Origin: Amphiscolops sp. MND2022
Lineage: Eukaryota
Length of the DNA stretch: 64,000 bases
Reading direction: 5' to 3'
NCBI GenBank assembly: GCA_964187785.1
Contig: OZ076409.1
Span: forward strand, 43,712,001-43,776,000
Position 1 is the first letter of the stretch, and every line of letters starts with the position of its first letter. The position numbers and the translations under genes were made by a program. The notes under the pieces were generated by a model, which worked only from the letters and a program-made list of their open reading frames with translations, made no database searches and had not been told where the DNA came from. Of the stretch, positions 7,654-53,958 are shown piece by piece.

Positions 7654-7665
7654 ATTAGTTTAAGA

Positions 7666-19797: not shown

Positions 19798-21560
19798 TTT
19801 TTAATGTTAGAAAACGATTCTTCGGCAATAGGTGAATTCTTCGAAGATGATTTTGTTCAACGTTGAAACAACGAAACAGTTTAAGTTTATTACAACTTGC
19901 AAACACAACTAACTAACTTTACATGCCTCGTCTAAGTATATATACCTTCTTAGCGTCATTTGTTCCTCATCTAAAAATTCCTAGGAATCGCAAAAATCAG
20001 GTTTGTTCATCAAAAAACTCTAATGATTCAGATTATTTCAACTCGGCGTCATAAATTCAGGTATTGAGATTCCTAGTTGCGTCACTATTCCGTAAAACCT
20101 TGTTGAAATCATTTTTGTTCAGGTAACCCATTTCCTGTTTGAACTTCAAAATTGCGGCAAAATAGAAGTCTAGCTTACATTTTCATCAGCGTAGGCACGC
20201 CGGCGTGATCAATTAGTCAGCGTTCAAGTTGGGAAATTGAGATTCGAAGCAAAAGAATGACTCGCAAAAATTGTAGCGAAATTGAAACGAGGCAAAAGGA
20301 ACTTTGGACTAAGGATATTTGAATATTATTGAGGAACAAGCAACGCTAAGAAAAAACATAATGATGATTAATCGGTTAATTTTGTAAACTGAACAACTGC
20401 ACCAACAGTAAACTCAACTTTGACCTATACGTGGCCATAACGTAACAAGTACGAATTGCAAAGTACAAATAGATAGGAAAAATACATTTGCAGGCAATAA
20501 TTATTCTGCACTCGATTGGACTTCGTATATGAATAAATAGAGCAGACATCCCGCAACAATAGCACTTGGTTTGGGTTTCGACGTTGACCTTACGTTACGT
20601 TCTGTGAAACATTTTAATGATAAACAACTAATCACTGAATACATAAAACTCTTAATGTAACGTAAGGCATACGTGATTCGAGAAACTGTTGTAATAGCAT
20701 CGTTACTCTTCGATCATTGTTTTAGCCCCTTTTTACAGTACAACCTTTTACATGTGGACTTGTTTCCAGAACCCTTTAAGTGCGTCGATTCAGAAAAATC
20801 CTTATTTGATTTCGGTTTAAACTAATGCTTCATCGCTATTATATTACGAATTGTTCCGTACGTATTAAGATTGGTTATAGCTGAGCGGCGGAATACAATT
20901 TTACAATCCGCTCCGTAGCTGCCCCGTACGTATTAAGATTGCTCATAGCTTAGCTGTCGGACCAAGCGGAGAGAAAGCGGAGTGCGTAGGTGAATTCATT
21001 CTCTTTCTCTTATTCCGATTGGTGTTGCTAGGGGCAACCGAAAATAATTCTATTCGACTTAGCTGAGAATAGTTCTATCAATAGAGTGACGTTATTGGTC
21101 CGTAGAAGCAAAATTCCTAATATTAGCTCAGTAGATTGACGTTGCCATAGCGTTGTAAATATTTGCCTAAATCACTTGGCTGTGCTTTAAGCGAATATTG
21201 ACAACTACTTCATCTCTGGAAAACAATTCCGCTCTATTATTTGTCTGTTCTTTTTCATTTTAGATTGTATGAATTCCGTTGGGATCTCGGAATTGAATTT
21301 TATTTTAATGTTTTCATTTTAGTGTGGACCAGTGGAAAGAATGATCCCAATTATAAATGTTCATTTTAGTGTTTAGATTAGTATGGCAGAAAATCAGAAA
21401 ATCATACCGGAAATGAAAAATCTTATCACGCGTGGAGAATATTTAACCGGAAGTTTTAGCTAAAAATCATTTCTGAAAAATGTTCCGTAACGTTTACGTT
21501 AGGTTTTGTATTCGGAAAATTATCTGCAATCGATTTAGCTGTACTGTAAGTAGAATTTAG
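19419..21560 (-). repeat. 5' LTR of element A, truncated by the assembly gap
   Basis: Direct repeat of 5512-7653; followed by the PBS. Confidence 0.88.
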
Positions 21561-28074: not shown

Positions 28075-29356
28075 ATGAGTGTTGTAGTATGCGAAAAACA
28101 TCGCAGTTTCCTTGCGCTCCCTGGGTGACGACAAGATTGGAATGAGAAATCCTAGTTGACGCAGACAAAATTCATTGAATCACAAAAGATTGATCAGTAT
28201 TGAATTGTCAGTCAGGAACAATCCTGAATCAAAAACTGGGAAGAGAGGAACGGGTGGGGAGAAAGAAAAGATACTGGCAAAAGTTTTTCTAGAAAGTAAC
28301 CGAAAAACTAAAGGAACAGTGGCTGATTTTCCGGCGTTGAGATTATGCGCAAAAAATTATAGCAGTAACAAATTTAATCATCTGAAAGATGAAAGATTTT
28401 ATCAACTTCAATTTAAATTCGTTTTTATGAAATGAGCAACTTCGGTTTCGACAGCGACATCCAATGTCAGCGTCATCCAATTCGACAGTCTACAGCTGCT
28501 TGTGGAAAGCTGATGTATTATTCGTAATACCTTTTGTTCACACTTTTTATATAAAGAAGATTATAATTTGTTTTGAAGTGGATAAAAACCTCTCTGGAAG
28601 AACTCAAAAGCTTCATTGGGCCACAAAATGGGGAAAGCGAAAAAAATTAAAAAACGAAGGATTTTAGCGCAAGATAGTTTCATCGTAATTTTCAACTGTT
28701 GCTGTCTCCTTCTCGCTAATTTCTTCTCATTTCCATAGCAGTAACAAATTCATCTTAATTCATGTGATTAATCTAGCAAACTTGGACAAAATATCTAAAT
28801 CTGGAATATGACTTTGAAAAGCTGATTCGCTTAAGCGGTCAACAAAATCTGCTCGTATTTTCAAACTGATGATGTCAATTAGAGGGAAGTATAAGAAGAA
28901 AATCATCTTATGAACTGAAGTCTTTCCTTTTTTCAAATCTACTATGTGTTAAGTCTGCTTCACAATGATAATTATCAAGCCAGTATTTTAAAAACGCAAA
29001 CAGGATGCTGCTAAAAACATTAAATCAGTGACGAAAAAAAAGCGAACTAAACATTGAGCAGTGGTATTGCTAAACCAACACATACATTTTCTCTGATGTA
29101 TCCTTCAAGAACAATTGATGATTCGCAAAGGAATATTCCTGAGCTTTGGGCAATTTTTGGCCAATTAGATTCAAAATTCATTGAACAATTCAAAATTTAT
29201 TGCCGCTACATTATATCACTGCAGTAGAAAAACACAATGAGAAAAATTGTCCAACGTCATAGCTATTCAGTCCATATCAAGTTCTCAAATCAAAAAACTT
29301 TACTTTATCAAACAAACCACTTCACGCGAAATAAGATTCGATGCAGATAATTTAAT

Positions 29357-32300
29357 TGTAGGATTTTTGACTTTTCGCTCATGATTTGGTGTTTATTAAA
29401 TTTTAGTTCATCAGCAAGGTAGATTTTACGGGGTGATATCGTATAAAAGTAAAGATTACAATAAGTACCTCAAGTACCTTACACTATTGTTTAATGTCAA
29501 TAATATTGTCTTTAGTCTCGCGGACTACTAAAAGAACCATTCTTAGCTGCTATGAAGCGACCGCGCAACGTATTAATGCAGTGAGACGGCCGCCACCACC
29601 TAAACCTATGTAAGAAAATTCTATTCGGAACGAAACTTTAACATTGAATTTCTCAATACCTATTGCGAATATAAGAAAAATTAAACCACCAAAATGTTCC
29701 TTTTTGACCTGACTACGTGTTGAGTAAACCTTTAAGAACTTTTCAGTAATGAATTTCCACAGAAAAAGCATTAGAAGTCATAAAATACTGTGAAAAGAAA
29801 TTTAGTCAAATTACTATGTTAATACATGTATTTGAGGGTATGCGAGAGTGAAACTTCACAGTACGCGGTATAAGCATTGAATGCAACTCACCTAAGCGTG
29901 TCAGAAAGCGAAAGGAATGAAAATTAGAACGCGCTGTGAGTGGCTGTACGCGTAGCTAATAAGAAAACGGCCGCCGCACACTTTGAATTAATCCCCCCTC
30001 TTAATAGAAATTAAAAATCAAAACCCGATTTCTCGAAGATGAAAAAAGATAGCAACAAACGGTTTTCAACATTCGAAAGCCCATCCACAGGAGAGCTTAA
30101 GTTGAGAATATGAGCGTTGTGCGACCCCGGGAACCTATCGGGGGGAAGCTTTGAAAATAAGTGCATTTAAAATTTTGACGATTTTCCAAAATTGAGTTTC
30201 GTTTAAAAATTTCGTGTGATCGCTACAGTTGTCAGAAAATGTTCGGATATGGCTCAAATTAAAGATAAATGGATGCCCTAACTTGTGTTAATTGGAAAAT
30301 AAATAATCTTCAGTAGTTGTTGAGAACTGAGCCAGCAAACGTTAAAAACAGCCCTAAAATGGCCTAAAAAGCCGTTTTTCGCATGTTATCGCTTAGTACT
30401 CAACGTGTAAGCACACAATAGCCGCCCCCTTCACAGCGTACTTGCGAATTGAAGTGGAAAAGTGAATAGAATAATAAATAGAGTGCTGCGGCGCGCTAGC
30501 GAAGAACCCCCAAGAATTTAAAGTTGTGATTTCTTTCTGCCGATAGGGATGTCGACCTACCAAAATGCGAACCCCCCCCGCACGTTTTGGGCGATATCGA
30601 GCTGAAACTTTCAGTGTAGACGCACAAGACCCAGGCGCACAGCGTTTAGCAGAAGCGTTTTTCCGAAAAATGCCCTGGTTTCGAGATATTGGCCTCCAAA
30701 GTTGAAAGTCCAGACATAAAAATCGGGAAAATGACTACTTTCAGAAAAAGTACTATCAAATTTTGTTGAGAAAAGATAGAGACCTCATCTAAAGTGCAAA
30801 ATACTCCTAATGGCTTGGGCTAACGATGTATATAAGCCCCAGCCTGTATCTTTCAAATTGACTGAGTACTAGCACTCCAAAGTTGAGATTTGCGTGAAAA
30901 CCGATGGGTGATTTTTGACTACCAAACTTTAAAGGCGTTTTTCATTGTGAAGGAGTTGAAATAGAAAGAAAACCATGGAGTAAGTTTTTGTAGCCCACGA
31001 TTTGTACTCCCCGTGAGTTTTTGCTCCCCGTGATCGGAACACCTTGTTTTAGCCCTTAGAAGTTGTAACACGAAAATCGACTTTTTTGATATGAATTGAA
31101 ATCGCCTTTTAGGTCATTGTAAATTGTAGAAAATTGTTTCCTTCAGCCATTTTTAGCTGAAGAGAGTTGCCAGGAACCGCGTGAGAAAAAGAGACCTGGC
31201 AAAAAGTGCAAATGTCAATCAGTAAGCCGAAGTTCAAGTCGTGCTTACAAAAGTGGGAAACACTGAGTCAGTAGCACCACCCCTTAAATTCTATTGAAAA
31301 CGAAGTAAAACCATCAGTCATGATTGACAAGGAGGTGGAACTAGGACCGACTCGTGCTGAGAAAATGTACTTCTGATGAACTTTCAGTACCGAAGTAGGA
31401 AAAAACTGTATTGCTCAACACTTAGTCAGAACCGGAAAAAGGAAAGATGATAAACTATGAATAATGATATGACTAAACTGCCGAAAAAGTAACTTAGGCC
31501 GAAGTGTGCGCCATTTTAGCGACACACAAAGTGAGTTGAAATCTAGAGAACGGTTTGCTGCTTTGCGTCCGATAGCATCCCGCATCAGACACCGGACTAT
31601 CGAAATTGCAGATTTACTTCGTCTGGCCGGTTAGCCCGTGCCTTCAGCCTTACAACCTGAAGTTGCCTGATTTGTTGCTACCCCGCTTTTCGCTAGTACG
31701 GATTTCGACCCGGGAGTAGGGTGGACTGCTGGTCTATCGTATTACATGTAAAAGAGCCTAAGTGGGCTGATAATACACGGTTGAGCCTAAGTGGGCTGAT
31801 AATACACGGTTGAGCCTAAGTGGGTTGATAATACACGGTTGAGCCTAAGTGGGCTGATAATACACGGTTGAGCCTAAGTGGGCTGATAATACACGGTTGA
31901 GCCTAAGTGGGCTGATAATACACGGTTTAAGCCTAAGTGGGCTGATAATACACGGTTTAAGCCTAAGTGGGCTGATAATACACGGTTGAGCCTAAGTGGG
32001 CTGATAATACACGGTTGAGCCTAAGTGGGCTGATAATACACGGTTGAGCCTAAGTGGGCTGATAATACACGGTTTAAGTCTAAGTGGGCTGATAATACAC
32101 GGTTTAGGCCTAAGTGGGCTGATAATACACGGATTGTTGTTTTCACTCCAAGACCGATAGAGATTTTGCGGCGAGTTGATTCTTCCGATATCTTCGATAT
32201 CACCCCCATCCTTACGGATACAAAAAACTTAACCTTGCTGAAATCCTTGTATACTGTTCTCTTGTGTTATATGCCTCCTAATATGCCTCCTAATATGCCT

Positions 32301-32722
32301 CCTAATATACTCAGTAATATTCTCCGCTATTATCGATGTTATCATATTATTCATTCTATTATTCGTGGATGTGAAATTGTATTTGTGTCTATTACTCGAC
32401 TTATTTATTTGATGTGTAGTAATTAAAGTTCAACCTGCTTCTTTTCATCAGCGAAAAGATAATTTCAAACAGTCCAAGAGTAGCGAGACAAACCCCTGAA
32501 AGAGGGAAAAATAGCAAAGTTGTAAAGATCGTGATTTCCTTGTCACACTTACCCCCACCGCCTTCGATTAAGTTGATTCGTCTCTTCTTCGGAGTTAATA
32601 AAAATTTATGTAGATACTCAGCCAGTCCTTGTCTCGTGCATGGTACCTACGGGTTTAATTGAGTTGTAGTGGAGCTATTCTCAACAAATAGTTAAAGCTA
32701 CTGGAAAACTAAAAATCTTACA
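29357..32722 (+). repeat. 5' LTR of element B (3366 bp)
   Basis: tgtagga...tcttaca; repeated at 40579-43923. Confidence 0.95.
31754..32132. repeat. Tandem array, 13 x 29/30 bp (gagcctaagtgggctgataatacacggtt), in 5' LTR
   Basis: Counted directly; no spacers. Confidence 0.95.
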
Positions 32723-32723
32723 T

Positions 32724-32741
32724 TGGCGCTCCTGGGTGGGC
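32724..32741 (+). promoter_or_regulatory. PBS of element B (TGGCGCTCCTGGGTGGGC, tRNA-Asn-like)
   Basis: One nt after the LTR. Resembles the complement of the tRNA-Asn 3' end (TGGCGTCCCTGGGTGGGC as recalled). Confidence 0.75.
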
Positions 32742-32833
32742 TTTCTTTGCGTCTTTGTTAGTTCCTCTTTCTTTGCTTACTTCTCTCCCTTATCTTCCCT
32801 TCACCCCTTTTGAGTTGCTGAACCCTTTCAACG

Positions 32834-34228
32834 ATGTCTGGAGACGACGACAACGATCAGCAGATCTCCCCCGTCACCCAAGAAGATTCCAACGGCACCC
32901 ACACTCCCGTCACAGGTTGTAGTAAACCACTCCTCAGTAAGTCCACTAAATTTTCCTTCGTAGGATTGGCCGACACGGAAAAGGAGTGTAAACGAGATGC
33001 TTATCGGCGATTGAAAGAAATGGAAAAAGAAATAAAAAGATTCAAAATTGAAGCAGACCTAGATTCTGACGACTCCATGGTTCTTGAAAATGAATCCAAA
33101 AGAAGACAAAAACCTTTATATGAAAAGTCGCCAATAAAACCAGAAAAGTTCCCCGGCAAAGATTACAACCTCTGGGAAAATTGGGTAAAACACTTCAAAG
33201 CAGTTGCCAAAGCCAATGGGTGGAATGATAGTCAAAAAATTGCTGCAATACCTACTTGTTTAACATCTTGGGCTATTGAAGAATTTGAAACTGTCCCCAA
33301 AAGATATATTGAAAAAGAACCCGGTTCTTACCCCCCACGTTTTGATGAACTCCTTGAATTTTTGAAACCCAAAATGCAGCAAAATCGCAGCCAGCGAGCT
33401 ACGCGGTCGGAATTTAAAGCAGTTAAACAGTGGGAAAATGAAGACCTAAGAGACTACCCGAGAAGAGTACGTCAACTCGCTGATATAGCCTTTCCTGAAA
33501 AATCGCTCCGGGAAAGAGAACGCGATATGAGAGATCAATTTATTGAAGGGCTTTTTGATTCGCGAATACAACTTAGTTTGTATGAAGACGAGCGTGACCG
33601 TGATTTCGGGGAAACTTTGCAACGAGCACAGGAACTCGAAATAATCCACAAGACTCATGAATCAAAAAGAGAGCGGAAACTTGATAAATTGCGCTATTCG
33701 TATGACGAATATGAGGATCCCGATCTAGTGAGAGCTGGCTATTCGAGTAACAACCAAATCGAAGAAAAATTTGCCGCCCTTCAAACATCTTTAACCAATG
33801 TGGCAAGTCGCTTTGATCGATTTGAAAATTCCATCTGTCAGCAAATATCCAAGCAAACCGATCAAATAACGAAAAACTTAGAACAAAGTTCCTCGAAACA
33901 AGTCGAAATGATGACCAGACAAAACGAAATCCTAATGCAGGGTATGAAAGACATGTCATCTGCGATCGTAGGAGCGTTAGGAAGTTCGCAAAGGCCGGTT
34001 GGTGGGCAGCCTCAAAGTTGGCAAGCTCCCCGTTTTCAAGCCCCTCTCAATCCTAACTATCGCGCGCCTCTAAATAGGGCAGGATCGTCGGGTCAGCTAA
34101 ATGTTTCGCACCCTCCCCCCGAAGAAGCGGAATGTTTTAATTGTAAGGCGATAGGTCACTACGCTAAGCAATGTCCAAGTCTTCCGCAGTCTAATTCTTT
34201 AAACTATCGACAGCCGAGTATGCAGTAG
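32834..34228 (+). CDS. gag: Gag of element B, 464 aa
   Basis: KPEKFPG...HFKAVAKANGW capsid-like region, RDQFIEGL, and the knuckle CFNCKAIGHYAKQC. Slippery T TTA AAC at 34198-34204. Confidence 0.92.
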   Translation: MSGDDDNDQQISPVTQEDSNGTHTPVTGCSKPLLSKSTKFSFVGLADTEKECKRDAYRRLKEMEKEIKRFKIEADLDSDDSMVLENESKRRQKPLYEKSPIKPEKFPGKDYNLWENWVKHFKAVAKANGWNDSQKIAAIPTCLTSWAIEEFETVPKRYIEKEPGSYPPRFDELLEFLKPKMQQNRSQRATRSEFKAVKQWENEDLRDYPRRVRQLADIAFPEKSLRERERDMRDQFIEGLFDSRIQLSLYEDERDRDFGETLQRAQELEIIHKTHESKRERKLDKLRYSYDEYEDPDLVRAGYSSNNQIEEKFAALQTSLTNVASRFDRFENSICQQISKQTDQITKNLEQSSSKQVEMMTRQNEILMQGMKDMSSAIVGALGSSQRPVGGQPQSWQAPRFQAPLNPNYRAPLNRAGSSGQLNVSHPPPEEAECFNCKAIGHYAKQCPSLPQSNSLNYRQPSMQ

Positions 34229-37200
34229 CAGGCTCTACTCGCGCTTGGGATTCCATCCCTTCCCCAGCTGCTACAAATTTTCCGCAAACAAGTCAGCGTG
34301 TTCGTTCTAGGTCTAGGAGTAACGATAGCCGTTTGCGACAGCGCAATCGCAGTAGGCGGATCGACCCCGAAACTTGGAAACAAATGTGTGATGAGTTTGG
34401 CCCGGGAGGTTTTTTTCCCAAAAGAATCCCATACCCTTGTTGTAAATAGTCCCCCAATACAAAATCTTTTTGAGGATAAACAAGCGGAGCCTGGCTCCGT
34501 GAAAATTTTGTACAAGAAAGAGTCAGAATTTCCAAATCAGGCCCGGTCTGATGAGGTAAAATCGAGAAAACTGACCCATAGTCAATACATTCCAGGGGCC
34601 ACGCTTTTAATCCCCTATGAAGTCGAAAGCCTACGCTGTTGGGCCATGATAGACACTGGTGCGAGTAGAAGTTTGATGAGTTTGGAATTGGCTAAGACTA
34701 TTGGTAACCCAATAGCCCCCAATCCCAGTCGTTTAACGGGCCCAATAGCTAATGAGATGCCTACCAAAGGTATCGTAAAAGCAGAAGTTAAAATCGGAAC
34801 GTGCGTCGCTTCCGATGAATTCGTGGTTGTAGAAGATCTCTACCCTGAGATCATGATTGGCTTAAAATTCATGATGGAAAATCAATGCTCGACTGACTTA
34901 GTCGAACAGAAACTAACGATCCCCAAAGACGATGGTTTCATCATCAAAGTACCCATGCAAGTCCTAAGCGGTCATGTTCCCCCGCCGGAAGATGACGCAT
35001 TTGTTTGCGAAACGGTACCCGGTCCTGACACAGTATCAGCGGCCTCCGAAATAAACGAAAAACTCGAACAGGAAGTTGACGAAATTTTAAATTTAGCCAC
35101 CCCTGGACTCGAGAACGCCGAAATAAAGGAAAAATTGCGAGATTTGATTCGTGATTACAGAGATGTGTTTTCACTGCCTTCAGACCCGTTAGGAACCGCT
35201 GTAGGAGTAGAACACCGCATAGACATAGGCGATGCGAAACCGTTCAAAATTTCGCCTTACAAAATTGCTCCGCATAAATTAGAAGCCGTTCGTGAAGAAA
35301 TTCGCGAGATGCTTGAGAAAGGAGTGATCGTACCGAGTAAAAGTCCTTTCAGCAGTCCCATAGTAATGGTACCGAAGAAAGATGGCTCAAACCGAATGTG
35401 TATAGATTATCGAAAGTTGAACGACCTTACCGTAAAGGACGCGTATCCGTTGCCCCGGATCGGTCAAACGATTGATGCACTGCAAGGAGCGGGAGTCTTC
35501 TCGTCTCTCGATTTAGCAAGTGGCTATTGGCAGATTCCAGTCGCGGCCGAAGACCGGCACAAAACGGCGTTTTGTACTCCGGATGGAGGATTATATGAGT
35601 GCTTGAAAATGCCGTTTGGCTTAACGAACGCCCCGCCAACTTTCCAAAGGAACATGAACGACATTTTTAAAGAAGATCTATATAAACATGTGCTCATATT
35701 CCTAGATGATGTGCTAACGTTTAGCAAAACTCCAGAAGAACATTTGGAGCATTTAGAAAAGGTGTTTATAGTTTTGCGCAAAGCCGGTTTACGTCTTAAA
35801 CCGAAGAAATGCAACTTATTCCGCACCGAGGTCCACTATCTAGGCCATGTGATTAACAAGGAAGGGATCCAACCGGATCCGAAAAAGTTAGCGGCAGTAC
35901 GCGAATGGGAGCCTCCGACCGACGTCACCGGAGTTCGCTCATTTGTTGCCTTCTGCAACTATTATCGGAAGTTTGTCCAAAATTTCGCGAAAGTGGCTCG
36001 ACCACTTTATTTGTTGACGAGCAAAGGATTAAAATTCACATGGACCGAAGAACATGACAAGGCGTTCCGAACGCTGAAGAAAAGATTGTTAGAAGCTCCA
36101 ATTTTGGCATTTCCAAATTTTGAACTTCCGTTCATTATTGATACCGATGCTAGTGATACGGCGCTCGGCGCAGTTTTGTCGCAAGTGATTGAAGGGATAG
36201 AGTATCCAATTGCCTTTGAGTCGCGAGTTCTAACTAAAACGGAGGTAAATTATGCAACAACCAAAAGAGAAGCGCTAGGTGTAGTTCAAGCCGTCCAGTG
36301 GTTCAGACCGTACATTTACGGATCCAAATGTATTATTCGCACAGATCATGCAAGTCTTCAATGGTTGTTTAGACAAAATGCGGATGGAATGACTTTTCGA
36401 ATGGTTCAAAAACTTCAGGAATATGACTATCAAATAGTACATCGTCCAGGTGATAAACATTGTAATGCGGACGGCCTTAGTCGACGACCGAATGACGTAC
36501 CCCAATGGCTCCCCGGCGAAGAAGATGCGTTAAGGGGACCGATCCCCGAATTCACCGAATTTGATAGTGCTTTGTTTGAAGCCGAACGCGATCTTCGAGC
36601 CGCCCGAACCAAAGCTCGTGAGGAATTGGAAAACTCAGAGGATGTAGCTCGGCATTTGAAAATGCAATATTCTCACCCACCTAGAGAGGTAGTCCGTTAT
36701 CGAGAAGGGGATTTTTTCGAATCCCCCGATTCCTTAGTATTGTGTGTATCTGCCGACATGAGAGTAGCCACTGCTCCCATGAAATCGTTCGTAAAAAAGT
36801 ATTCCCATTTACCACCTCTCGCAGAGTCGGTAAATCGTGTTGGAGGCTTTCTAGTGTACCGAGATGTCACAAAAGGACGATATTTGTATATACTGATCAC
36901 CAAGCATTGCCACGGAGAAGTTGCTAAATACGATGTACTAAAAGAAAGTCTATTGAGAGTGAAAGAACATGCTAGTTCCCATGGAATTTCCAAACTTGCA
37001 ATGCCTAGAATAGGTTGCGTCGATGACGAATTGGAGTGGGTGAATGTAGCTATTTGTCTAGAGGTAGTGTTTCAAGATTCGTATTTTACGATCTCCGTGT
37101 ATACACCGAGAGACCAAGAGCAATTCTACCCTTCGACTTCGGCAAGACGAGGTACCCCGCGTTCATCAAGTGTAGATTCCGCCTGTTCCGTCGTTACCCC

Positions 37201-39032
37201 TGAAGAAATGTTAGTATCAGAGCAAGTGGGGGGGGGGGCATATCTCATGGACTAGATCAGATAGCGACCTAGCGTATGGTCAGAGAATGGATCGTGGTAC
37301 GGGATTACTATTCCGTGAAATGGTTAGACGTGGAATTCGGATAGATGGTACATTGGAAGATTTAGGGCCCAACCCCATCCCCAGAGAAGTAGCATTAGGA
37401 TGGAGTTGTCCAGAGGCGTTAGAACTTTGGAGTAATTGGGATCAGCTAGCGCTGGCCAATCGAGTCCTTTATCGAAAATGGAAACCTAGCAATCGTGAAC
37501 GTGAAATATGGCAGGCAGTAGTTCCTTCGACTATGAGAGCTGAAGTGTTACATCAGTTACATGACTCCCCTCTTAGCGGAGGTCATTTTGCAGCCGAGAA
37601 AACGTTATCAAGGATTAAACAGAGATTTTGGTGGCCTGGTCTCAGGTCAAGTGTAGAAAAGTATATTGCAAAATGCACGCGTTGCGCAGCTAGATCAACG
37701 GCGGGAAAAAGTCGAAAAGCTCATTTGCAAACAATTGAAGCAAAGGCGCCGTTTCGTATTGTTGCAGCAGATATCTTGGGACCCGTAACGCTAGCGAAAA
37801 AGTCACAGGCGCGATACATTTTAGTCATATCGGATTTGTATACAAAGTATGCGGTTGCCGTTCCTTTGAAAGACATGACGGCTAAGACGGTGGCCACGAC
37901 TTTAGTCGAAGAGTGGATTTTGAAATTTGGGGCTCCCGATACTTTACATACGGATCAAGGAACTAACTTCAACAGTGAAGTAATGAAAGATATTTGCCAA
38001 GTTTTCATGATCGATAAAACTAGGACTTCTCCGTATCATCCTCAAGGAAATGGTCAAGTAGAAAGATTCAATAGAGTCATTGCCGATACTATCTCTAAGT
38101 ATTGTGCCGAAAAACCGCAGGAGTGGGATCTCTACTTACCCCACGTCAATTTTGTGTACAATACCACCGTACATAAGACCCTCGGTACGACCCCGTTTTC
38201 GATGTTGTACGGGAGAGAAGCACAATATCCGATCGACTTATTCTATCCGAAACCTCCTGGCGACCCCCGTTTAGAACTAGGCGAGGTAGGAGCCGAGTTG
38301 AGTGATAAACTATTCGAAGTACATAGTCATGCGCAACTGACTATGGGGAAAGAACAACGTCGTCAGAAGGATTATTATCAGAAAAAAGTCCATGGAGAAG
38401 GTTTTAAAATAGGAGACCGAGTGTGGTTATTCGAGCCACACAAAGCGAAATCCCGAAAGTTCCATCTCCCTTGGCACGGTCCATACGAAGTATTGAGTCA
38501 GACCAGTGAAGTGAACTATCAGATTTGCAAGCCAGGTTGCCCGGAAAAGTGGTAAAATATCCATTTTAATCGTCTCAAACCGTATCTTGGCGAATCCCTC
38601 CCGAAACGATCCGAACGAGTGGCGACAAAAACGCTACCGAGTTATGAAGAAGTCCCAGATGAATCCGATTCATCCGACCAAGAGACCGAAAATAGACCGT
38701 ATCATGTGTTCCGCCCTACTTCGGCGGAAATCCAAGCCAATAAAAACCGGCCGCACGTGTCATTTCATGACGTTCCCCGCGTGATAAACGCCGAAAGCGA
38801 CGAAGAGACTACTCTGACTAATTGCCCGTTGTATATAGACGTCCCCGTACCGTCAGAGGAGTCTTCATTTCCTGTTTATGAAGAAATAAACGACAATAGA
38901 AATACTTCGCCTCCTTCAGACGAGGAGGACAACGAAAGCGAGCGTTCAGATTCGCTGATAATCGAAACGACACGGAATCGTCGACCGCCAGTACGCTTTG
39001 GCATAGACGAGTACGTGGTAAAGCCAAAATAA
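34198..39032 (+). pseudogene. pol: Pol of element B (PR-RT-RH-macrodomain-IN), interrupted
   Basis: MIDTGAS, FLDD, TDAS, NADGLSR, HHCC, TDQGTNF, ERFNR and WHGPY motifs. Apparent frameshifts at T7 (34410-34416) and G11 (37228-37238), and an in-frame TAA at 38553-38555. Confidence 0.88.
36686..37105 (+). CDS. TARG1/OARD1-like macrodomain within Pol B
   Basis: YREGDFF..DSLVLCVSADMR..RYLYILITK..YDVLKESL..ISKLAMPRIGC..LEWVNV..EVVF..ISVYT is colinear with recalled OARD1 (YVKGDLF..DSLAHCISEDCR..RYIYYLITK..LSMPRIGCGLD..ITVYT). Confidence 0.88.
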
Positions 39033-40565: not shown

Positions 40566-40578
40566 AAGTGGGGGGGAA
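40566..40578 (+). promoter_or_regulatory. Polypurine tract of element B
   Basis: aagtgggggggaa immediately before the TG of the 3' LTR. Confidence 0.85.
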
Positions 40579-43500
40579 TGTAGGACTTTTGACTTTTCGC
40601 TCATGATTTGGTGTTTATTAAATTTTAGTTCATCAGCAAGGTAGATTTTACGGGGTGATATCGTATAAAAGTAAAGATTACAATAAGTACCTCAAGTACC
40701 TTACACTATTGTTTAATGTCAATAATATTGTCTTTAGTCTCGCGGACTACTAAAAGAACCATTCTTAGCTGCTATGAAGCGACCGCGCAACGTATTAATG
40801 CAGTGAGACGGCCGCCACCACCTAAACCTATGTAAGAAAATTCTATTCGGAACGAAACTTTAACATTGAATTTCTCAATACCTATTGCGAATATAAGAAA
40901 AATTAAACCACCAAAATGTTCCTTTTTGACCTGACTACGTGTTGAGTAAACCTTTAAGAACTTTTCAGTAATGAATTTCCACAGAAAAAGCATTAGAAGT
41001 CATAAAATACTGTGAAAAGAAATTTAGTCAAATTACTATGTTAATACATGTATTTGAGGGTATGCGAGAGTGAAACTTCACAGTACGCGGTATAAGCATT
41101 GAATGCAACTCACCTAAGCGTGTCAGAAAGCGAAAGGAATGAAAATTAGAACGCGCTGTGAGTGGCTGTACGCGTAGCTAATAAGAAAACGGCCGCCGCA
41201 CACTTTGAATTAATCTCCCTCTTAATAGAAATTAAAAATCAAAACCCGATTTCTCGAAGATGAAAAAAGATAGCAACAAACGGTTTTCAACATTCGAAAG
41301 CCCATCCAAAGGAGAGCTTAAGTTGAGAATATGAGCGTTGTGCGACCCCGGGAACTTATCGGGGGGAAGCTTTGAAAATAAGTGCATTTAAAATTTTGAC
41401 GATTTTCCAAAATTGAGTTTCGTTTAAAAATTTCGTGTGATCGCTACAGTTGTCAAAAATGTTCGGATATAGCTTAAATTAAAGATAAATGGATGCCCTA
41501 ACTTGTGTTAATTGGAAAATAAATAATATTCAGTAGTTTTTGAGAACTGAGCCAGCAAACGTTAAAAACAGCCCTAAAATGGCCTAAAAAGCCGTTTTTC
41601 GCATGTTATCGCTTAGTACTCAACGTGTAAGCACACAATAGCCGCCCCCTTCACAGCGTACTTGCGAATTGAAGTGAAAGAGTGAATAGAATAATAAATA
41701 GAGTGCTGCGGCGCGCTACTGAAGAACCCCCAAGAATTTAAAGTTGTGATTTCTTTCTGCCGATAGGGATGTCGACCTACCAAAATGCGAACCCCCCCCG
41801 CACGTTTTGGGCGATATCGAGCTGAAACTTTCAGGGTAGACGCACAAGACCCAGGCGCACAGCGTTTAGCAGAAGCGTTTTTCCGAAAAATGCCCTGGTT
41901 TTGAGATATTGGCCTCCAAAGTTGAAAGTCCAGACATAAAAATCGGGAAAATGACTACTTTCAGAAAAAGTACTATCAAATTTTGTTGAGAAAAGATAGA
42001 GACCTCATCTAAAGTGCAAAATACTCCTAATAGCTTGGGCTAACGATGTATATAAACCCCCAGCCTGTATCTTTCAAATTGACTGAGTACTGGCACTCCA
42101 AAGTTGAGATTTGCGTGAAAACCGATGGGTGATTTTTGACTACCAAATTTTAAAGGCGTTTTTCATTGTGAAGGAGTTGAAATAGAAAGAAAACTATGGA
42201 GTAAGTTTTTGTAGCCCACAATTTGTGCTTTCAAACGGTGTACTTGGTTTTTGCCCCCCGTGATCGGAACACCTTGTTCTTGCCCTTAGAAGTTGTAACA
42301 CGAAAATCGACTTTTTTGATATGAATTGAAATCGCCTTTTAGGTCATTGTAAATTGTAGAAAATTGTTTCCTTCAGCCATTTTTAGCTGAAGAGAGTTGT
42401 CAGGAACCGCGTGAGAAAAAGAGACCTGGCAAAAAGTGCAAATGTCAATCAGTAAGCCGAAGTTCAAGTCGTGCTTACAAAAGTGGGAAACACTGAGTCA
42501 GTAGCACCACCCCTTAAATTCTATTGAAAACGAAGTAAAACCATCAGTCATGATTGACAAGGAGGTGGAACTAGGACCGACTCGTGCTGAGAAAATGTAC
42601 TTCTGATGAACTTTCAGTACCGAAGTAGGAAAAAACTGTATTGCTCAACACTTAGTCAGAACCGGAAAAAGGAAAGATGATAAACTATGAATAATGATAT
42701 GACTAAACTGCCGAAAAAGTAACTTAGGCCGAAGTGTGCGCCATTTTAGCGACACACAAAGTGAGTTGAAATCTAGAGAACGGTTTGCTGCTTTGCGTCC
42801 GATAGCATCCCGCATCAGACACCGGACTATCGAAATTGCAGATTTACTTCGTCTGGCCGGTTAGCCCGTGCCTTCAGCCTAACAACCTGAAGTTGCCTGA
42901 TTTGTTGCTACCCCGCTTTTCGCTAGTACGGATTTCGACCCGGGAGTAGGGTGGACTGCTGGTCTATCGTATTACATGTGAAAGAGCCTAAGTGGGCTGA
43001 TAATACACGGTTGAGCCTAAGTGGGCTGATAATACACGGTTGAGCCTAAGTGGGCTGATAATACACGGTTGAGCCTAAGTGGGCTGATAATACACGGTTG
43101 AGCCTAAGTGGGCTGATAATACACGGTTTAAGCCTAAGTGGGCTGATAATACACGGTTTAAGCCTAAGTGGGCTGATAATACACGGTTGAGCCTAAGTGG
43201 GCTGATAATACACGGTTGAGCCTAAGTGGGCTGATAATACACGGTTGAGCCTAAGTGGGCTGATAATACACGGTTTAAGTCTAAGTGGGCTGATAATACA
43301 CGGTTTAGGCCTAAGTGGGCTGATAATACACGGATTGTTGTTTTCACTCCAAGACCGATAGAGATTTTGCGGCGAGTTGATTCTTCCGATATCTTCGATA
43401 TCACCCCCATCCTTACGGATACAAAAAACTTAACCTTGCTGAAATCCTTGTATACTGTTCTCTTGTGTTATATGCCTCCTAATATGCCTCCTAATATGCC

Positions 43501-43923
43501 TCCTAATATACTCAGTAATATTCTCCGCTATTATCGATGTTATCATATTATTCATTCTATTATTCGTGGATGTGAAATTGTATTTGTGTCTATTACTCGA
43601 CTTATTTATTTGATGTGTAGTAATTAAAGTTCAACCTGCTTCTTTTCATCAGCGAAAAGATAATTTCAAACAGTCCAAGAGTAGCGAGACAAACCCCTGA
43701 AAGAGGGAAAAATAGCAAAGTTGTAAAGATCGTGATTTCCTTGTCACACTTACCCCCACCGCCTTCGATTAAGTTGATTCGTCTCTTCTTCGGAGTTAAT
43801 AAAAATTTATGTAGATACTCAGCCAGTCCTTGTCTCGTGCATGGTACCTACGGGTTTAATTGAGTTGTAGTGGAGCTATTCTCAACAAATAATTAAAGCT
43901 ACTGGAAAACTAAAAATCTTACA
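40579..43923 (+). repeat. 3' LTR of element B (3345 bp)
   Basis: Direct repeat of 29357-32722; followed by the TSD. Confidence 0.95.
42984..43333. repeat. Tandem array, 12 x 29/30 bp, in 3' LTR
   Basis: Counted directly; one unit fewer than in the 5' LTR. Confidence 0.95.
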
Positions 43924-44865
43924 TTAATTAAGAAGTAGGAAATTCTGGTGCATAATAGAATTGGCCCAATAATACATAAACTTGATCCAATAAATCAAAG
44001 AGAATACGTTAAACGTCATTGCTTACCACTAGAGGTTTAATTAAATTATAGAATCTGTGTTCAAAATTGGTTTCTCGGTCGTGGAAATTCTTTTTTGTAA
44101 CATTTTTCATCATTTTCCCAAACAATTGAATACGGAAAAGTGATTTTCTTTCGAATTAACATGAAATCAATTGTTCATTTACATGTTTAAAGATAAAGAG
44201 TAGTTGAAAGACTTCCGTTTTCAAGATACATTCAAATTTTATTGGAATGCTTTATATTCATTGATTGTGACGTGCCAAGTTACAATAATTTACCGCAGAT
44301 TTACAGGTCATGACTTTCCAATTCATGACTCTTGGGTTCGGATGTTCGGATATCCATGATCACAGTAAACAACAGGACGTAATAAAAGAAAAATCATGAT
44401 GCCATGGATAATCATGAATGAAAAGCAATGACCAAACATATTTTTCAAGATATCAGTAGGCTCTTTTATCTTTGGCAATCCTGTGTGCTCAGGACATGTC
44501 GGCGAAAAGCACGTCGAAACTTTTTGAACCATTTTACAAAAACAAACTGCATTATTCGAATTGATTGTTTTTTTTGTTGAACATTTGAAAAATGCACTCC
44601 AAGGAGATGATGAAGTTCGTCAACAGATAATTTTGGAAAAAAATTGCACTGGAGTTGGGTTTGAGTAAATTGCCTTTGGCAAAAAACAATTATGGCAGTG
44701 AACATGGATCTCAAGGGCGACCCAGAGTCGTTACCAAAGTGCATGATTTGCGGTTAAAATGGAAATAACCCGGTTGAAGCGACATCAAAAAAGGTCACTG
44801 ACACATCCAGAAGGTGGCACATCAAGAAAAAATTTGAAAAACTGTATTGAGGGAGCTGTTAGAAG

Positions 44866-46068: not shown

Positions 46069-46852
46069 TGTAACGACAAGCTCTTACCATTGTCGCCGTA
46101 ACCATAAGAGTTAGCATAAGAGTTAGAGGAACACATGATATGGGTATTTGCCCGGGACAGGCGCCCATGACCATGAGCTCATGTTGCCTCTTTCGGGTAA
46201 AAACTGTCCCGTCAGAGGAGGATTCCGCTTCTTGTGAAGTGCTCGCCGGTCTGATCCAGTCTTTAATTGCTGTCAGTAGCGCGAATTACGCTTTTTCATC
46301 GAAACCATCACTTAGACAGCCTTTAAAAACGTTCCGAAAGGAAATTATGTTAAATTTTCGTTATTCAGGGTGACTTGGGAATAATATCTAAAATTACGAA
46401 ATAAGATCTAAAATTGTCAAAGTAGCCATAAACTTACAGCAATGTACAGCAATCTCGTCCACAACAGCGATTTCGCAACATCCACATTCAGCTCGCAAGC
46501 TGGGGCACCACAGGCACAGATTTGTGAATTAGACGAAAAGACTCATTTTTACGGTTTTCACTACTTAAGGTAGCATGCTGCTAAAATCAAGGTTAGCACC
46601 TTCAAAAGAGTCTAATTTCAGAGGTTTTTGCAGTCTCTGGCGTCTGTTCGGGCGGCTGGCTTTATGTTTTTTCTCGATCTTCGCTCTTGTTGTCGAAGTA
46701 CCTGCCAATTTCGTTGAAACAGCGAAAAGAGCAATCACATGCTCAGTGCCACGTCAAACATTGAATAAGAATTTTTCAGAAATTTTCTGAACATGTTCAA
46801 ATCCAAAATTCCAATATCGACTAATTTTGCTGTCTCAGAGGGTGCCGTTACA
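46069..46852 (-). repeat. 3' LTR of element C (784 bp)
   Basis: tgtaacg...cgttaca inverted termini. 46069-46386 matches 52886-53191. Confidence 0.85.
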
Positions 46853-48016
46853 CACTCCCCAGACTTTATGCATGACGTCCCTGTCATGCGGAGAAGCTGG
46901 CAATGAAAACATCTCCACATCATCTTTGCAATTGACTGGGAGTTCAAACTGGTGATGTTGCAATGGCCCAGTGGCACTGTCATCTTTCGCTGATTGGGCA
47001 ACCTTGAGGTCTTGCTTCTTGCAATCTATCGAGCCTGCATCATCCACTGACTGCTGTTACTGGAGCAAGCCCTGGGGCTATAAAACGAGCACTCAAAAAT
47101 TCACCTTCAAACAAATCAAAATCTTTGTTCTATATATCAATCTGAGAGCATCATTGGGTTGGCAAATGTTTTCTGCACTATGTTTGGATAGGATCTTGAT
47201 AGCATTGATGTTTATGTTGTTTAAGAATTTTTTTGGAGCCCTGGGGTTCTCTGGCGCGGTTTTGCTCAAAAACTTCTTTTCCACGCCGGTAAAAGTTCAG
47301 TTTGCAGAACAGTTAAAACTTGTTTTCAGTAAAACTTCTTTTCAGCGGAAAGACCACTGTTTAAAAGGAAAACAGGTAGTTTCTGATATTCTTTGTTCAA
47401 AGTTTGACTAGGTTTGGGCAGCACGCACTGATGTGCAGCTCCATATCAAAACAAAAATTAGTAGCATCCGTTGAGGAGAGTATGAAAGGCGATTTACCAA
47501 TTGACTGCATGTGAGATTTAGCACTGAGACAAAATTAGACAAGATTCTGTAATTGAAAGTTTTGGGGCTAATGAGCTCCATTGAACAAGTTAATCCGTAG
47601 AAAAGCCACTGAATCAAAGGAAAATTGACATTGAAACTTCAAAGAATATAACTATAGAGATTACGAAACTAAAGAAGAAACCATAAAAACAAGCCTCTGG
47701 CCAAAGTTGCACTAACGAGGACTTTTTTTATCTTTTTTTGTTTTTTTTTTGTTTTTTGTCAAGCCTCGCTGATAGCCTTGAAAATGTCATATCAAATTAA
47801 TTTTTACGAGGAACAAAAAACAAAGTTTTATTATCAAGCTGTGGTTGTATACATCGGAATCGATTGAGAGTCATGTGCAGTCGGGTTTTCATTACTTTAG
47901 ATTGTGGACAATTCCGTGGGTGGTCAGCGTGGAATGTAGAGAATAGAGTGTTGTCTCCCATGGGACTCCCCGGACCTTAGAAAACTCCCCGGACCTTAAT
48001 CGTTGATCATTTTTTT

Positions 48017-49399
48017 TCATATGAGGATAGCGAGGAATAGACAAACTTGAATGCCTGAAACAAAAAGTGCGGAATGATAAGTTGAGCTTTGACGACACCT
48101 CCTCCCCCCTTGAAAAGAAATGGAGTGTAGCTCAGGCAGTGGATCGGCATCCTTATTCGGTAGTAGCAGGACATACAAAAAGCATGAAAAATCAGGACAT
48201 CCAATAAAGAAGGAAACTGAGGCTGGGTCTGTCTCAAGACTGTGACAATTGTTCGGAGGACGGCCACGCCTAGGTCCCTTTGGTCGATGCGACCATGGTA
48301 GTAAGAGGATTGAGCGTGGTGGACGCCCACGGCGACGTCTACGATGAAGCGAAAGCAGAACTTTATGCCACGAGAGTTCATCAGAAGTCCGCGGTGGTCG
48401 ACCACGTCTATGTCCAGTCGGTCGAGATTTGGTTGAACCACTATGCAACCATTTGATAATCATTGGCTGGTCCACCTGAATATAATCATGTAGACCACGT
48501 TCAGCAGACGTTGGCTCAATAGAATATCTCAGGAAACTCGGCAGGAACTGCGAAGTGAATAATAGGGACTTTGTTCCAGGGAAGTGAGAGTTGCTTACAG
48601 AATCCTGCGATAAGGAAATGGAGGATGAGATTGATATTCGTTCATTTGTCGTATCACTTGAGTAGAGGTTGCGCTCGCGCAACCTCTTGTCACCGGCGTG
48701 ATATTTAGGCAAAGTGTCAGCAATAATCATGGTTGAAGTGTTCAAAGATATTGGGTCCACTCCCATGTCTTTTGTTGGCGGTGTCATTGGTTCTGCTTCA
48801 GCGTCGCTTGGAATATTGATAGTGGCACTTCTAAGGTGTATTTGCTTATCTGCATTTATCGACTGCATTTGTGCAGGCACTCGTGCTAACAATTTCTCCC
48901 TGCGAAGTCCGCTTTGTGCCATCAAGTTTGATATTTCATCCATCTGCTGCTCCAGGGCCTCTAATTGTTGATCCTGTTTCTGATAAATCTGAATGGTGGT
49001 TTTTTGGCGAGATTTGTCCGACGACGATACTGAACTAGGACTGGCAGTCCTGATGCTTCTCTCCGGCTCGGTATCCTGTGTGTTAGATGGCATTGAGTCT
49101 CGAAAATCGGAGACAATTTTGAAACTACCCTCCAAAGTCCAATCTTCCAAGTTCAAATCGTCTAACTTCGTCGATCGGTCATGTTCATCTACTATTTGGG
49201 ATTCATTTTGAGGTTGAACATCATGAACATCCATTGGTTGTGCTGCACTGACACCCTTTTTCCGTTTAAAAAAGGAACGGATGCGGTGGAAGACTTTCCA
49301 ACGTTTCATTTCAGCTTCAGAGGCTTCCAACTGCTTGACTAGAACCACCAGTGTATCCAAATTTGGTGTCAGGGTCAAAGTCAAGAGAAGTTCTAGCAA
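48017..49399 (-). CDS. ORF of element C: Gag-N-terminus-related protein with three AT-hook-like motifs
   Basis: TKDMGVDPIS resembles TRDQGVDPMS in Gag of D, with a coiled coil. Three RRGRPP motifs. No CCHC and no capsid core. Confidence 0.6.
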   Translation of the reverse strand: MLELLLTLTLTPNLDTLVVLVKQLEASEAEMKRWKVFHRIRSFFKRKKGVSAAQPMDVHDVQPQNESQIVDEHDRSTKLDDLNLEDWTLEGSFKIVSDFRDSMPSNTQDTEPERSIRTASPSSVSSSDKSRQKTTIQIYQKQDQQLEALEQQMDEISNLMAQSGLRREKLLARVPAQMQSINADKQIHLRSATINIPSDAEAEPMTPPTKDMGVDPISLNTSTMIIADTLPKYHAGDKRLRERNLYSSDTTNERISISSSISLSQDSVSNSHFPGTKSLLFTSQFLPSFLRYSIEPTSAERGLHDYIQVDQPMIIKWLHSGSTKSRPTGHRRGRPPRTSDELSWHKVLLSLHRRRRRGRPPRSILLLPWSHRPKGPRRGRPPNNCHSLETDPASVSFFIGCPDFSCFLYVLLLPNKDADPLPELHSISFQGGRRCRQSSTYHSALFVSGIQVCLFLAILI

Positions 49400-52300
49400 T
49401 CATCGCGTGCTGAAAACTGTTCAACGCTTTACAAGCTGCTCAGAGGGTAAACAAAGTTGTTCTCGAGCAAATTGCTGTAGTCAAGTTGGATAGTGCGCAT
49501 CAAACAGACAGTCGAGCGGTTTATTGACCTCTCAACCTCAATGGATTTGGGTATGTTGTGATTACCCAAAAGAAATCTCTGCAAATTTGACGTAATATTC
49601 GGGGCTTGTGCTGCTTGATACTGCTGAATGAAACCAAATAGAGGCACCAGAGAGTTCACAAAAGTTCGCAATCCGGTGAAAATATTGTCACTAGGATGTT
49701 GCTCCGCTCAAAATCTCGTGATTTTGGCTAAGTCGGAACCCTCAGAGTCTCTTTTGGATATCGAAAAGGCTGCTTAGGCTCACAGCGTAACGCCTAGAGG
49801 TTTTTTGTGGGAAAAATGTAGTCCTGAGTGCGTAGCAGGCACTCAAAACTGCTGAATTGGGCTTTTTAGGATCAACTTTCAAAGTCTCAGATGAGTTCAA
49901 AATTTATGACCCCTGCCGGCAATTTTTTGGAAACGTGGGATTTGCCTCGTTTGCACCCAGGAAGGCTTTCCGGGTCTCTTCGGTTGGAAAATGAAGGCTT
50001 TTGGTCTCTGCTTTTCGTATAGTGGGAGTACTGAGGTTTTATGTTTTCGTTTTTTTTGACGGTTTTCCGGAATTTTGGCCAAAATGCGTGTCTGGGAACA
50101 GTCAACATCAGTTTTATCACGCGTATTGGGTAGAAAATTGAACAGCACGTTTGTTCAGTTACACAAATTTGAAAAATGACCTCCCGAGGCCGATAATTAC
50201 CTCCAGCTACAAGCTAGAAAGTCTTTAAAGGATTTTTGAAACTTTTAAAAAATTTAGAAAATTACTCAAGTGGCTCGTACCAAGACTGGGAACGTAAGAT
50301 CGGGCTCAAAAATAGCCACGCGGCCCCACCTGTAGCCAGGTACACTGTGACAAGCACGAATTGGGGCTCAGACTATTGAATGAGTTGCAGATGCTGTACA
50401 GGCTTTCCGTATCACCGTATCTTATGGGGATACGATTTTTCACGTGCAACCAGAGACTCTTGTCCACAGTGATGAGCTCGCAAGCTCACTTTTTCAGCAA
50501 CAGTGCATCAAACGACACTGACAACAATGGTCCAGAGAAATGTAGTCCCAACGTTCCGATCAGGTGCGGCGACAACTCCCAAAAATGATCCAACTCGTTA
50601 CAATACACAGGATATCACAACTGTAAGTAACAAAATGCTATGTTGCAGCAAAGCAGCACATTCGATATTGACCACAAATTGCACGCACAGCAAGGAATTC
50701 ACAAATAGGAGTTCAGACCAGGGGGTTTTCACAAGTTTCCAACACGTAAAACTGGGTTTTGTCCCACTTCCCAAATTTTCGTCTCAGTGAGGACTTAAGC
50801 CAGAATAAGGGTATGCACGTCTCAAATGGGTCGAAATCACATCTAGGGGTCGTAGCGAGTTCAAATTCACTCAAGCAGTTGTTACCAATCGACAAGCTCA
50901 GAAAATGAGTTTGATTTGCAGCTAAACTTTCGCTAAGACAATCACGCGACGTTTACAACAAATTTTGAACCTTTTCGGAGAGTATAAAAAAAGACAACTG
51001 GCTCGAAATCGTCACTGAAGAGTCGAATCTGGCTCAAAATTGACCAGAAGATCCTACACACACGTAGGTACACGGAATTGAGCACGTATTTGGGTTCCGA
51101 GGCTTGTACACTGTTTCGCCTTTGTACAGACGTGCGTTACACCTATGTCTCAGTAGGAGTCAAAATGCACGCTTATTATACAACTTCTGAGCACTGGTAT
51201 GAGTTAGCAGTTCGGTATTCTCTCTAACAATGCACCAAGTAGCACAAATTACGACGGTGGGCTACAATTTGTCCCCACTTTTCGATTAAGGTGTTCAGGC
51301 TTTTCAAAAAAATTTCAAAAAAATTGCCTTTTTGCACCTCTTTTTGTGCAGTACGTTTTTGCCAATTTCTGAACGAATATTGAACCAAATGGCTTGAAAC
51401 TTGGCAGGCGCTGCCAGTGGGCAGTCAAAATGCTGGTTCAATGGTTCGATGAAAGCTCGCGAGCTTTCCTAGGGTTACGACTGAGTACAGACACTATTTC
51501 AGCAAAAACATTCTTTTTTTGACACTTTTTTCACAAATTGGATTTGTGGAAATTTGGTCAAATTCAGTGCGTTTTTCCACTTTTCTCAGCACTGAAAAGG
51601 AATTTTTTGACGCGGTTCTCACCCTCACACGTTATTTTTACCATATAAACTGAAAATGAGAGCTCGGAAGCTCCTAGCTAACAAAAAGACAGAGTGCCCA
51701 GGGGGTTTTAATTTGTACTCACACACTCCTGAAACTGACTAAAATACAAGGTTTTTCAAAGTTTTCCAGTTACGAACACGTAAACAAACTACTCAAACGT
51801 TAATTTCTGTCCCGTGAAAGGTGCCCCAAGCTCTTAGTAGCACGGAAGAGGCGATTGCAATGCTATCCAGCACTCTTCCGGTAGCATTTCATAGTGGTTT
51901 TTTGTCAATTTTGCCAAAAATCGGGATTTTTTTTCATACAAAATGCGTCCAAAAATGGACTCCAACTCCTTTTCTGGTGGACAATACATTATGTAGCAGC
52001 ACCCTAGAGGTCTTGCGCTACTTTCCATACATTTTTGCAACTGTTGTGACTAACATCTAGAGCGCTCGCGCTCGTACCAAGAAAAACACTCAAAAATGCC
52101 AAAATTGACGTTTTTGCTACTTTTGCATCCAAAATCGGACTTTTCTCACCGAAAACGGCTGCAAAAGCACACACTAAGTTGCAGCAGGGAAAAACTAGCA
52201 TGAAAAAACGATTCCCCATCAAAAAATGCACAATCGAAAAATTTTTCTATACCATAATCCGAAAAACTGATACTTCTGGAATGAGTGGTGGTACATTCGG

Positions 52301-52849
52301 CGTCTTTTTTCTCAACACTCAGACCAGCTAGAGAGAAACGGTTTGGATTGTCGGCAATGTCAGCAGTTGTTCTACCTTTCCACCAAAAACCATCCCTCTA
52401 GGACGTCTCCACGAGAAATGGGAAAGGAGAGTCGGGAACACTCGTTTCAGCTCATCTATCAGTCGGATGGAACATGGTTCAACTATCAATTTCACCGCTC
52501 GTACACAAGCGCAAATCACTGAAAACAGCTAGAAAAACCTGTTAAACACCAGTAGCGACGTGCTACTGTCCACTACGCTTCTAAAAAGAGGACCCGCTGA
52601 TGGGAACCTTGCAATTTTAGACGATTTCTGTCAACAAATACCGTTTACTAATATACCATCGGTATTTGGGGAAGTGAAGTCACCTGAAAAACGGACAGAA
52701 AACCTGCCACAGTAAACCTGTCAATACATCAAACTTTAAAAAATGAAGGAAAACTCTGCGTTAACATCTCCAACCAGAGCCAGGTCGTACTTGGCGTTAA
52801 TCACCAGAGGGTCGGCTCTTTTAAAACCATTAAGGGAAGCACTTCGAAG

Positions 52850-52869
52850 CGATCCCTCTGTGGTCGCCA
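52850..52869 (-). promoter_or_regulatory. PBS of element C (TGGCGACCACAGAGGGATCG, tRNA-Arg-like)
   Basis: Identical to the PBS of element D; 16 nt from the LTR end. Confidence 0.7.
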
Positions 52870-52885
52870 AAAAATGATGTCTCTA

Positions 52886-53923: not shown

Positions 53924-53938
53924 TAGAAACTCATTTTT

Positions 53939-53958
53939 TGGCGACCACAGAGGGATCG
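53939..53958 (+). promoter_or_regulatory. PBS of element D (tRNA-Arg-like)
   Basis: TGGCGACCACAGAGGGATCG, 15 nt after the LTR. Confidence 0.7.

Follow-up and report, generated by a model that had tools for sequence, protein, structure and literature searches.

Here we describe a Ty3/gypsy long terminal repeat (LTR) retrotransposon whose Pol polyprotein carries a TARG1/OARD1-type (ALC1-like) macrodomain between RNase H (RH) and integrase (IN), found in a stretch of 64,000 nucleotides from Amphiscolops sp. MND2022 (contig OZ076409.1, positions 43,712,001 to 43,776,000 of the forward strand; hereafter "the window"). Across the family to which this copy belongs (family A) and its sister family (family B), the ADP-ribose pocket of the domain has been remodelled, and the domain is maintained by selection. 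Our favoured reading, to which we give about an even chance, is that the family-A/B domain is a non-catalytic pseudo-macrodomain, its pocket likely closed, that has been kept as a binding module. The domain occupies the following interval:

36686..37105, plus strand: TARG1/OARD1-type macrodomain with a remodelled ADP-ribose pocket

These 420 nucleotides encode 140 amino acids in frame with protease (PR), reverse transcriptase (RT), and RNase H (frame 34229-37255). A phmmer search against the PDB returned chains of TARG1 (C6orf130) only, with an E-value of 1.2e-21 and 36% identity over query residues 6-143, and the AlphaFold model of the domain (pLDDT 92.6, built on a 40-sequence alignment) gave TARG1 at ranks 1-8 in Foldseek, with TMq up to 0.85 (4j5q) and with DarG, Poa1p, and viral macrodomains behind. 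Together, sequence match and fold rule out a chance match or a wrong frame. A preliminary description made from the sequence alone had already placed a TARG1-type domain, in frame, at the RH-IN position, and the PDB match, the fold, and the Pfam domains bear this out, as does the superposition of the AlphaFold model on TARG1 that it proposed. The profile search that it also proposed gave a mixed outcome: while the match to TARG1 itself is strong, the Pfam Macro profile alone scores weakly (E 0.05), and routine annotation therefore misses the domain. Likewise, the order RH-macrodomain-IN is a continuous frame in other copies, but in the window copy integrase lies in another frame. When the region from RNase H to integrase was predicted for a natural copy (17 sequences only), the macrodomain appeared as a confident bead flanked by low-confidence linkers (pTM 0.34) and did not dock in a fixed way onto either enzyme; it is thus predicted to be flexibly tethered between the two.

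We next turned to the pocket, numbering residues after TARG1 from an alignment of the window domain with the TARG1 PDB chains and tallying them over 52 distinct family-A places and 7 family-B places. The window residues are these:

36740: His32 replaced by Leu
36773: Gly43 replaced by Ala
36776: Ile44 replaced by Pro
36902: Lys84 kept
37019: Gly123 replaced by Val
37022: Leu124 replaced by Asp
37025: Asp125 kept

This agrees with the preliminary description, which had seen the Gly-rich loops changed to ATAPM and GCVDD and had correctly taken the residues at 36902 and 37025 as the catalytic Lys and Asp; both align with the K84 and D125 of TARG1. All 52 family-A places carry Leu at position 32, Pro at 44, Val at 123, Asp at 124, and Glu at 126, with Ala (49) or Thr (3) at 43, Ala or Val at 41, and Cys (51) or Trp (1) at 86; Lys50 is kept. 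In all seven family-B places, Gly43 is Leu, Ile44 is Pro, Gly123 is Ile, and Lys84 is Arg, with Asp125 kept, and the change of Leu124 to Asp, beside the diphosphate loop, is found in every copy of both families. Among 141 other homolog rows—domains shorter than 105 amino acids and 24 near-duplicates having been excluded, a few second domains and one remodelled-clade fragment included—position 43 is Gly in 135, 44 is Ile or Val in 130, 123 is Gly in 133, 84 is Lys in 138, 125 is Asp in 133, and 32 is His in 130. Two remodelled relatives, P0015 and P0031, which have no close match in the present genome (best 45% and 54%), carry the same remodelled loop over the part that their sequences cover, and other members of the remodelled clade have Arg or Ile for the catalytic Lys. 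At the N-terminal GD motif, the Asp that contacts adenine varies across this clade (D, H, E, N, or I), and the motif is kept in family A. Finally, 21 positions are nearly fixed in 6-8 remodelled-clade sequences and rare elsewhere. Judged from these alignments, the pocket change is old and lineage-fixed, not single-copy damage.

The catalytic dyad of TARG1 is K84/D125 (PMC9411070, PMC7050489), and PMC5928194 reports that neither ADP-ribose binding nor catalysis survives any one of the changes G43E, I44E, and G123E. All three of these positions are replaced in family A, one of them by Pro, and an Asp has been added beside the phosphate site. These changes argue against the possibility that the family-A domain still erases or reads ADP-ribose through a reshaped pocket of altered specificity, as do the Arg that stands for the nucleophile in family B, whose Pol frames are open, and the loss of the basic RNA-docking residues Arg86 and Arg126, now Cys and Glu. 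On the other side, family A keeps the Lys, the Asp, Ser35, Asp37, and the GD motif, its fold is intact, and mechanisms vary among ALC1-class hydrolases according to PMC7050489 and PMC9411070. On balance, we consider a surviving eraser or reader unlikely. The preliminary description had suggested that the element brings such an activity into its cDNA or integration complex; because G43, I44, and G123 are replaced in 52/52 family-A places, and K84 is additionally Arg in family B, this proposal is a better fit to families C, D, and E (below) than to family A.

The surface of the domain speaks to a further alternative, namely that it binds nucleic acid independently of the pocket, keeping genomic RNA or cDNA in place for use by RT or integrase. 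Its location between two nucleic-acid enzymes would suit such a role, and TARG1 surface patches are described as binding RNA even with G43E or G123E (PMC5928194). However, family A has a neutral domain (pI 7.0, with 19 Lys and Arg and 19 Asp and Glu), as against pI 8.8-9.7 for intact element and host domains. Moreover, TARG1 docks RNA via K50/R86/R126, as reported in bioRxiv 10.64898/2026.03.31.715305, and two of these three are lost in family A, with R126 charge-reversed to Glu. We therefore regard a nucleic-acid-binding role as very unlikely.

Family A comprises at least 150 near-identical copies: 150 of 1044 genome candidates were scored, all at 93-100% identity, and about 56 of these (hand count) have a single Pol frame of 1602-1612 amino acids in the order RH-macrodomain-IN. 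Family B is 62% identical to A and includes four places with open Pol frames of 1614-1619 amino acids; two genome searches for more diverged families of this type gave A/B-like copies only. Of 51 family-A places considered, 27 have long open frames, and in these we examined selection from variants present in at least two copies. Here the domain shows 10.5 replacement versus 20.5 silent shared variants, a pN/pS of 0.15 (p 2e-7 against neutrality) in which pN is biased down by the choice of copies for similarity in the domain, whereas RT, tether, and RH of the same copies show 0 replacement versus 49 silent. Comparison of A with B, which is free of this bias, gives a pN of 0.26 and a pS of 0.79, at which silent sites are saturated. 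The domain is thus under purifying selection, weaker than that on the core enzymes. Neutral decay across copies, which the preliminary description had held out as the contrary outcome for its functional model, is ruled out by the replacement deficit among shared variants, and the loop changes are fixed throughout the family-A places tallied. As a separate observation, four of the seven shared family-A replacement variants fall at residues 62-79 (36860-36913), beside the catalytic Lys, and one of these sites is H/K/N; from its sequence variation, this segment is possibly a diversifying surface.

The same data bear on whether the domain is an entrenched passenger, a dead insert kept only for folding, spacing, or processing within the polyprotein. 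Consistent with this, identity between A and B in the domain (61%) equals that of the adjoining RH-macrodomain linker (62%) and pre-IN region (59%), replacements within the family are more frequent in the domain than in any other measurable Pol region, and the sister family G (below) has open gag-pol-env frames without any such domain. We nonetheless find a mere passenger improbable. The domain persists in all A/B subfamilies seen as well as in P0015 and P0031, and its clade-specific residues are fixed where intact homologs are polar and variable; furthermore, a short RH-IN spacer is viable in the close relative G, yet in A/B a deletion has not become widespread.

We return, then, to a pseudo-macrodomain kept as a binding module, in which a lineage-specific surface has been retained along with the fold, probably for binding a protein partner. 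In a first step, the element would have acquired the domain as a working eraser that was synthesised along with Pol and carried in the particle. There it would strip the element's RNA, cDNA, or proteins of ADP-ribose added by the host, as families C, D, and E may still do. In a second step, the A/B lineage would have lost the pocket and kept the domain for binding. For the partner we prefer, as a guess by analogy, a restriction factor of the host such as an ADP-ribosyltransferase, which would be blocked by contact. Such a decoy is suggested by the finding that DarT is still inhibited through contact with catalytically dead forms of DarG, TARG1, and SCO6735 (PMC9411070) and by viral macrodomains, in which activity has been lost recurrently (PMC10221186).

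Several points weigh against this interpretation. The equivalents of K84, D125, S35, D37, and G121 are invariant across all 52 family-A places, and the changes of Gly to Ala and Val in family A are milder than the Gly-to-Glu changes that were tested in TARG1. Motif loss is itself no proof of inactivity, because SCO6735 is active without the TARG1 dyad in the account given in PMC9411070. In addition, no measurable part of Pol is less constrained within family A than the domain (10.5 versus 0 replacements in RT, tether, and RH, Fisher p 3e-5), the within-family pN carries the downward bias noted above, and the equal A-B identity of domain and flanks would fit constraint on the fold only.

The element that carries the domain is complete in structure, with its frames broken in the present copy. 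Its features are as follows:

29352..29356, plus strand: target-site duplication TTAAT, second copy at 43924-43928
29357..32722, plus strand: 5' LTR, TG...CA, about 3.4 kb, with a 29-bp tandem array
32724..32741, plus strand: primer-binding-site-like 18-mer
32822..34228, plus strand: gag with a CCHC zinc knuckle
34229..37255, plus strand: 5' part of pol, with protease (about 34613-34873), RT (35369-35854), RNase H (36041-36424), linker, and macrodomain
37215..38555, plus strand: integrase (H2C2 zinc finger, core, and C-terminal part) in a shifted frame, with a stop at 38553
38556..39032, plus strand: acidic C-terminal Pol tail, in frame past the stop
40570..40578, plus strand: polypurine tract (from sequence)
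40579..43923, plus strand: 3' LTR

The element belongs to Ty3/gypsy by its order of gag followed by PR-RT-RH-IN and by its TG...CA LTRs, primer-binding site, polypurine tract, and target-site duplication. The two LTRs differ by 34 mismatches over 3335 aligned bases (1.0%), and frame breaks lie near 34420, in a G run near 37230 (relative to other copies), and at the stop at 38553. A search for an env gene, in the form of a baculovirus-F-type third open reading frame (ORF), gave no match in the window or in locus L088. The 18-mer primer site has 631 exact matches in the genome and is common to families A, B, D, and G, that of G being assigned from 18-mer matches adjoining G Gag matches. Elsewhere in the window, two further LTR-type elements (5512-21560, minus strand, and 56599-63998, plus strand) have no macrodomain match; the second has a 270-amino-acid RH-IN spacer matching no assigned domain and a PNMA-like Gag. 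The intervals 46069-53196 and 51017-56286 hold a direct-repeat pair, which surrounds an unassigned 460-amino-acid frame (48020-49399, minus strand), and nested long inverted repeats.

A genome search with an intact TARG1-like protein uncovered further families (C-F). C, E, and F (L081, L082, L086, L062-L076) are gypsy elements of the gag-pol-env type whose RH-IN slot holds a likely active TARG1 domain, its pocket intact; in family C, G43 is kept in 14/15 and G123 and K84 in 15/15. C and E have LTRs of about 0.7 kb and a primer site that differs from that of A, B, D, and G. An ORF3 of 750-810 amino acids is found in B, C, E, and G, recognised as Baculo_F in E only (E 4e-5) and in the rest by mutual similarity. 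Family D (L083, L087, L089, L090, L099-L128; about 110 places by hand count, with LTRs of about 1.8-2 kb) instead has a single Gag-protease-macrodomain frame of 834-845 amino acids, and four full loci gave no match to RT, RH, or IN. Nearly all of the 30 places tallied retain an intact pocket, and the family-D domain is more constrained than the linker and tail (shared pN/pS 0.23 vs about 0.56, p 0.03, from 22 of the 30 places). Family D Gag is 53% like that of family G, and its macrodomain groups with C/E (100/99).

Family G (L164, L166, L168, L169), by comparison, has no macrodomain and a short RH-IN spacer, with open gag-pol-env frames (env in L164, L166, and L168). In the RT-RH tree it is sister to A/B (99/99), and thus a single clade of the macrodomain-bearing Pols of this genome is rejected (p-AU 0.0014); either the domain was gained twice, or it was lost in G. 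Since this macrodomain-free sister has open frames, the domain is likely accessory. Three other loci (L165, L167, L170) have a G-like Gag without a Pol match, two of them (L167, L170) with an unassigned second frame of 450-525 amino acids. The genome also contains adjacent host TARG1-like genes: an intron-free frame of 315 amino acids (L085:4557-5501, minus strand) and an apparently spliced paralog (L098). Capture from the L085 gene is not supported, as this gene falls outside both element clades in a poorly resolved tree.

Other organisms were surveyed through the best 150 of 1190 matches at E 0.001, of which the 54 longer than 300 amino acids were scanned. Among these 54 are five gypsy Pols. 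In two of them (P0121, from a weevil, and P0134) the domain lies between RH and IN, and in three (P0079, P0108, P0138) it lies behind IN. P0111 has a TARG1 domain behind a divergent RT; all six keep G43, K84, G123, and D125. P0121, P0160, and P0232 are Rhynchophorus ferrugineus retroelement proteins with TARG1 domains, and in the tree the weevil element domain nests among beetle host proteins, a placement indicating that this element took its own host's domain independently. A single origin for all element macrodomains is rejected (p-AU 0.0016), whereas a capture shared by the A/B domain with C/E/D is compatible with the data (p-AU 0.38). On these phylogenetic grounds, TARG1 domains have entered LTR elements repeatedly. 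Separately, P0138 has a weak Tpt1/KptA match (E 3e-6) behind its TARG1 domain, by which it could possibly combine an ADP-ribose writer and eraser in one element.

How does the window domain compare with known systems? With human TARG1/OARD1/C6orf130 (PDB 4J5Q/4J5R/4J5S) family A aligns end to end and shares K84 and D125; it differs in being embedded in Pol, in having His32, Gly41, Gly43, Ile44, Gly123, Leu124, Arg86, and Arg126 replaced, and in its neutral surface. The bacterial ALC1-like DNA ADP-ribosyl hydrolases DarG and SCO6735 are of the same fold class (TMq 0.72-0.78, 14-18% identity), but the DarG HMM scores only 25.6 bits on the domain (E 7e-6) against a cut-off of 250, and a domain scan of the element ORFs detected no ADP-ribosyltransferase domain that would make a DarTG pair. 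A captured housekeeping enzyme occupies the same Pol slot in non-primate lentiviruses, where an active dUTPase between RNase H and integrase is packaged and protects cDNA quality; the enzyme is a different one, and active, whereas the family-A domain is likely inactive. Repbase notes reportedly place macro domains in some non-LTR elements as well. Closer to the present case, teleost Epsilon-like endogenous retroviruses (ERVs) carry proteins that have a Macro domain (Basta et al. 2009, as cited in PMC4977317). Macrodomains in retroelements are therefore not unprecedented. These fish ERVs are likewise retro-transcribing LTR elements with a captured macrodomain, but they are Retroviridae-like, with additional reading frames, and the review text available names neither macrodomain class nor Pol placement; the window element is Ty3/gypsy, with a TARG1-class domain in Pol. 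The macrodomains of alphaviruses and coronaviruses similarly sit in a mobile-element polyprotein and are retained despite recurrent activity loss (PMC10221186), though alphavirus structures are only 10-14% identical to the window domain and belong to RNA viruses rather than to a DNA-integrating element with a TARG1-class domain. We found no paper describing a TARG1-class domain in a gypsy Pol in a search that left aside subscription journals, Repbase Reports, and supplements (e.g., the domain tables of 10.1101/2021.11.30.470311), any of which could mention one; nor was a macrodomain mentioned in the accessible part of PMC6431247. Likewise, no paper was found on ADP-ribosylation as a defence countered by an LTR retrotransposon macrodomain.

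Hosts and RNA viruses or phages are known to contend over ADP-ribosylation, and the repeated capture described here suggests a host ADP-ribosylation defence against retroelements also. A joint reading, which we hold tentatively and think rather unlikely as a whole, is that an arms race over ADP-ribosylation is under way between LTR retrotransposons and their host: TARG1 erasers would have been captured several times (in the RH-IN slot, behind IN, and on the Gag of an RT-less element), family D would supply active eraser in trans, and the window lineage would be a dead decoy blocking the host transferase. If such an arms race is real, family D, which shares the primer site of family A, could provide this activity. 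TARG1 is reported in bioRxiv 10.64898/2026.03.31.715305 to be the enzyme that selectively removes ADP-ribose from uracil-N3 and guanine-N1 in RNA. Repeated capture of the sole class erasing base-linked ADP-ribose from RNA speaks for a restriction that modifies the bases of retroelement nucleic acid, a proposal that is testable, and this one genome constitutes a natural panel—the domain intact in C, E, and D, remodelled in A and B, and absent in G.
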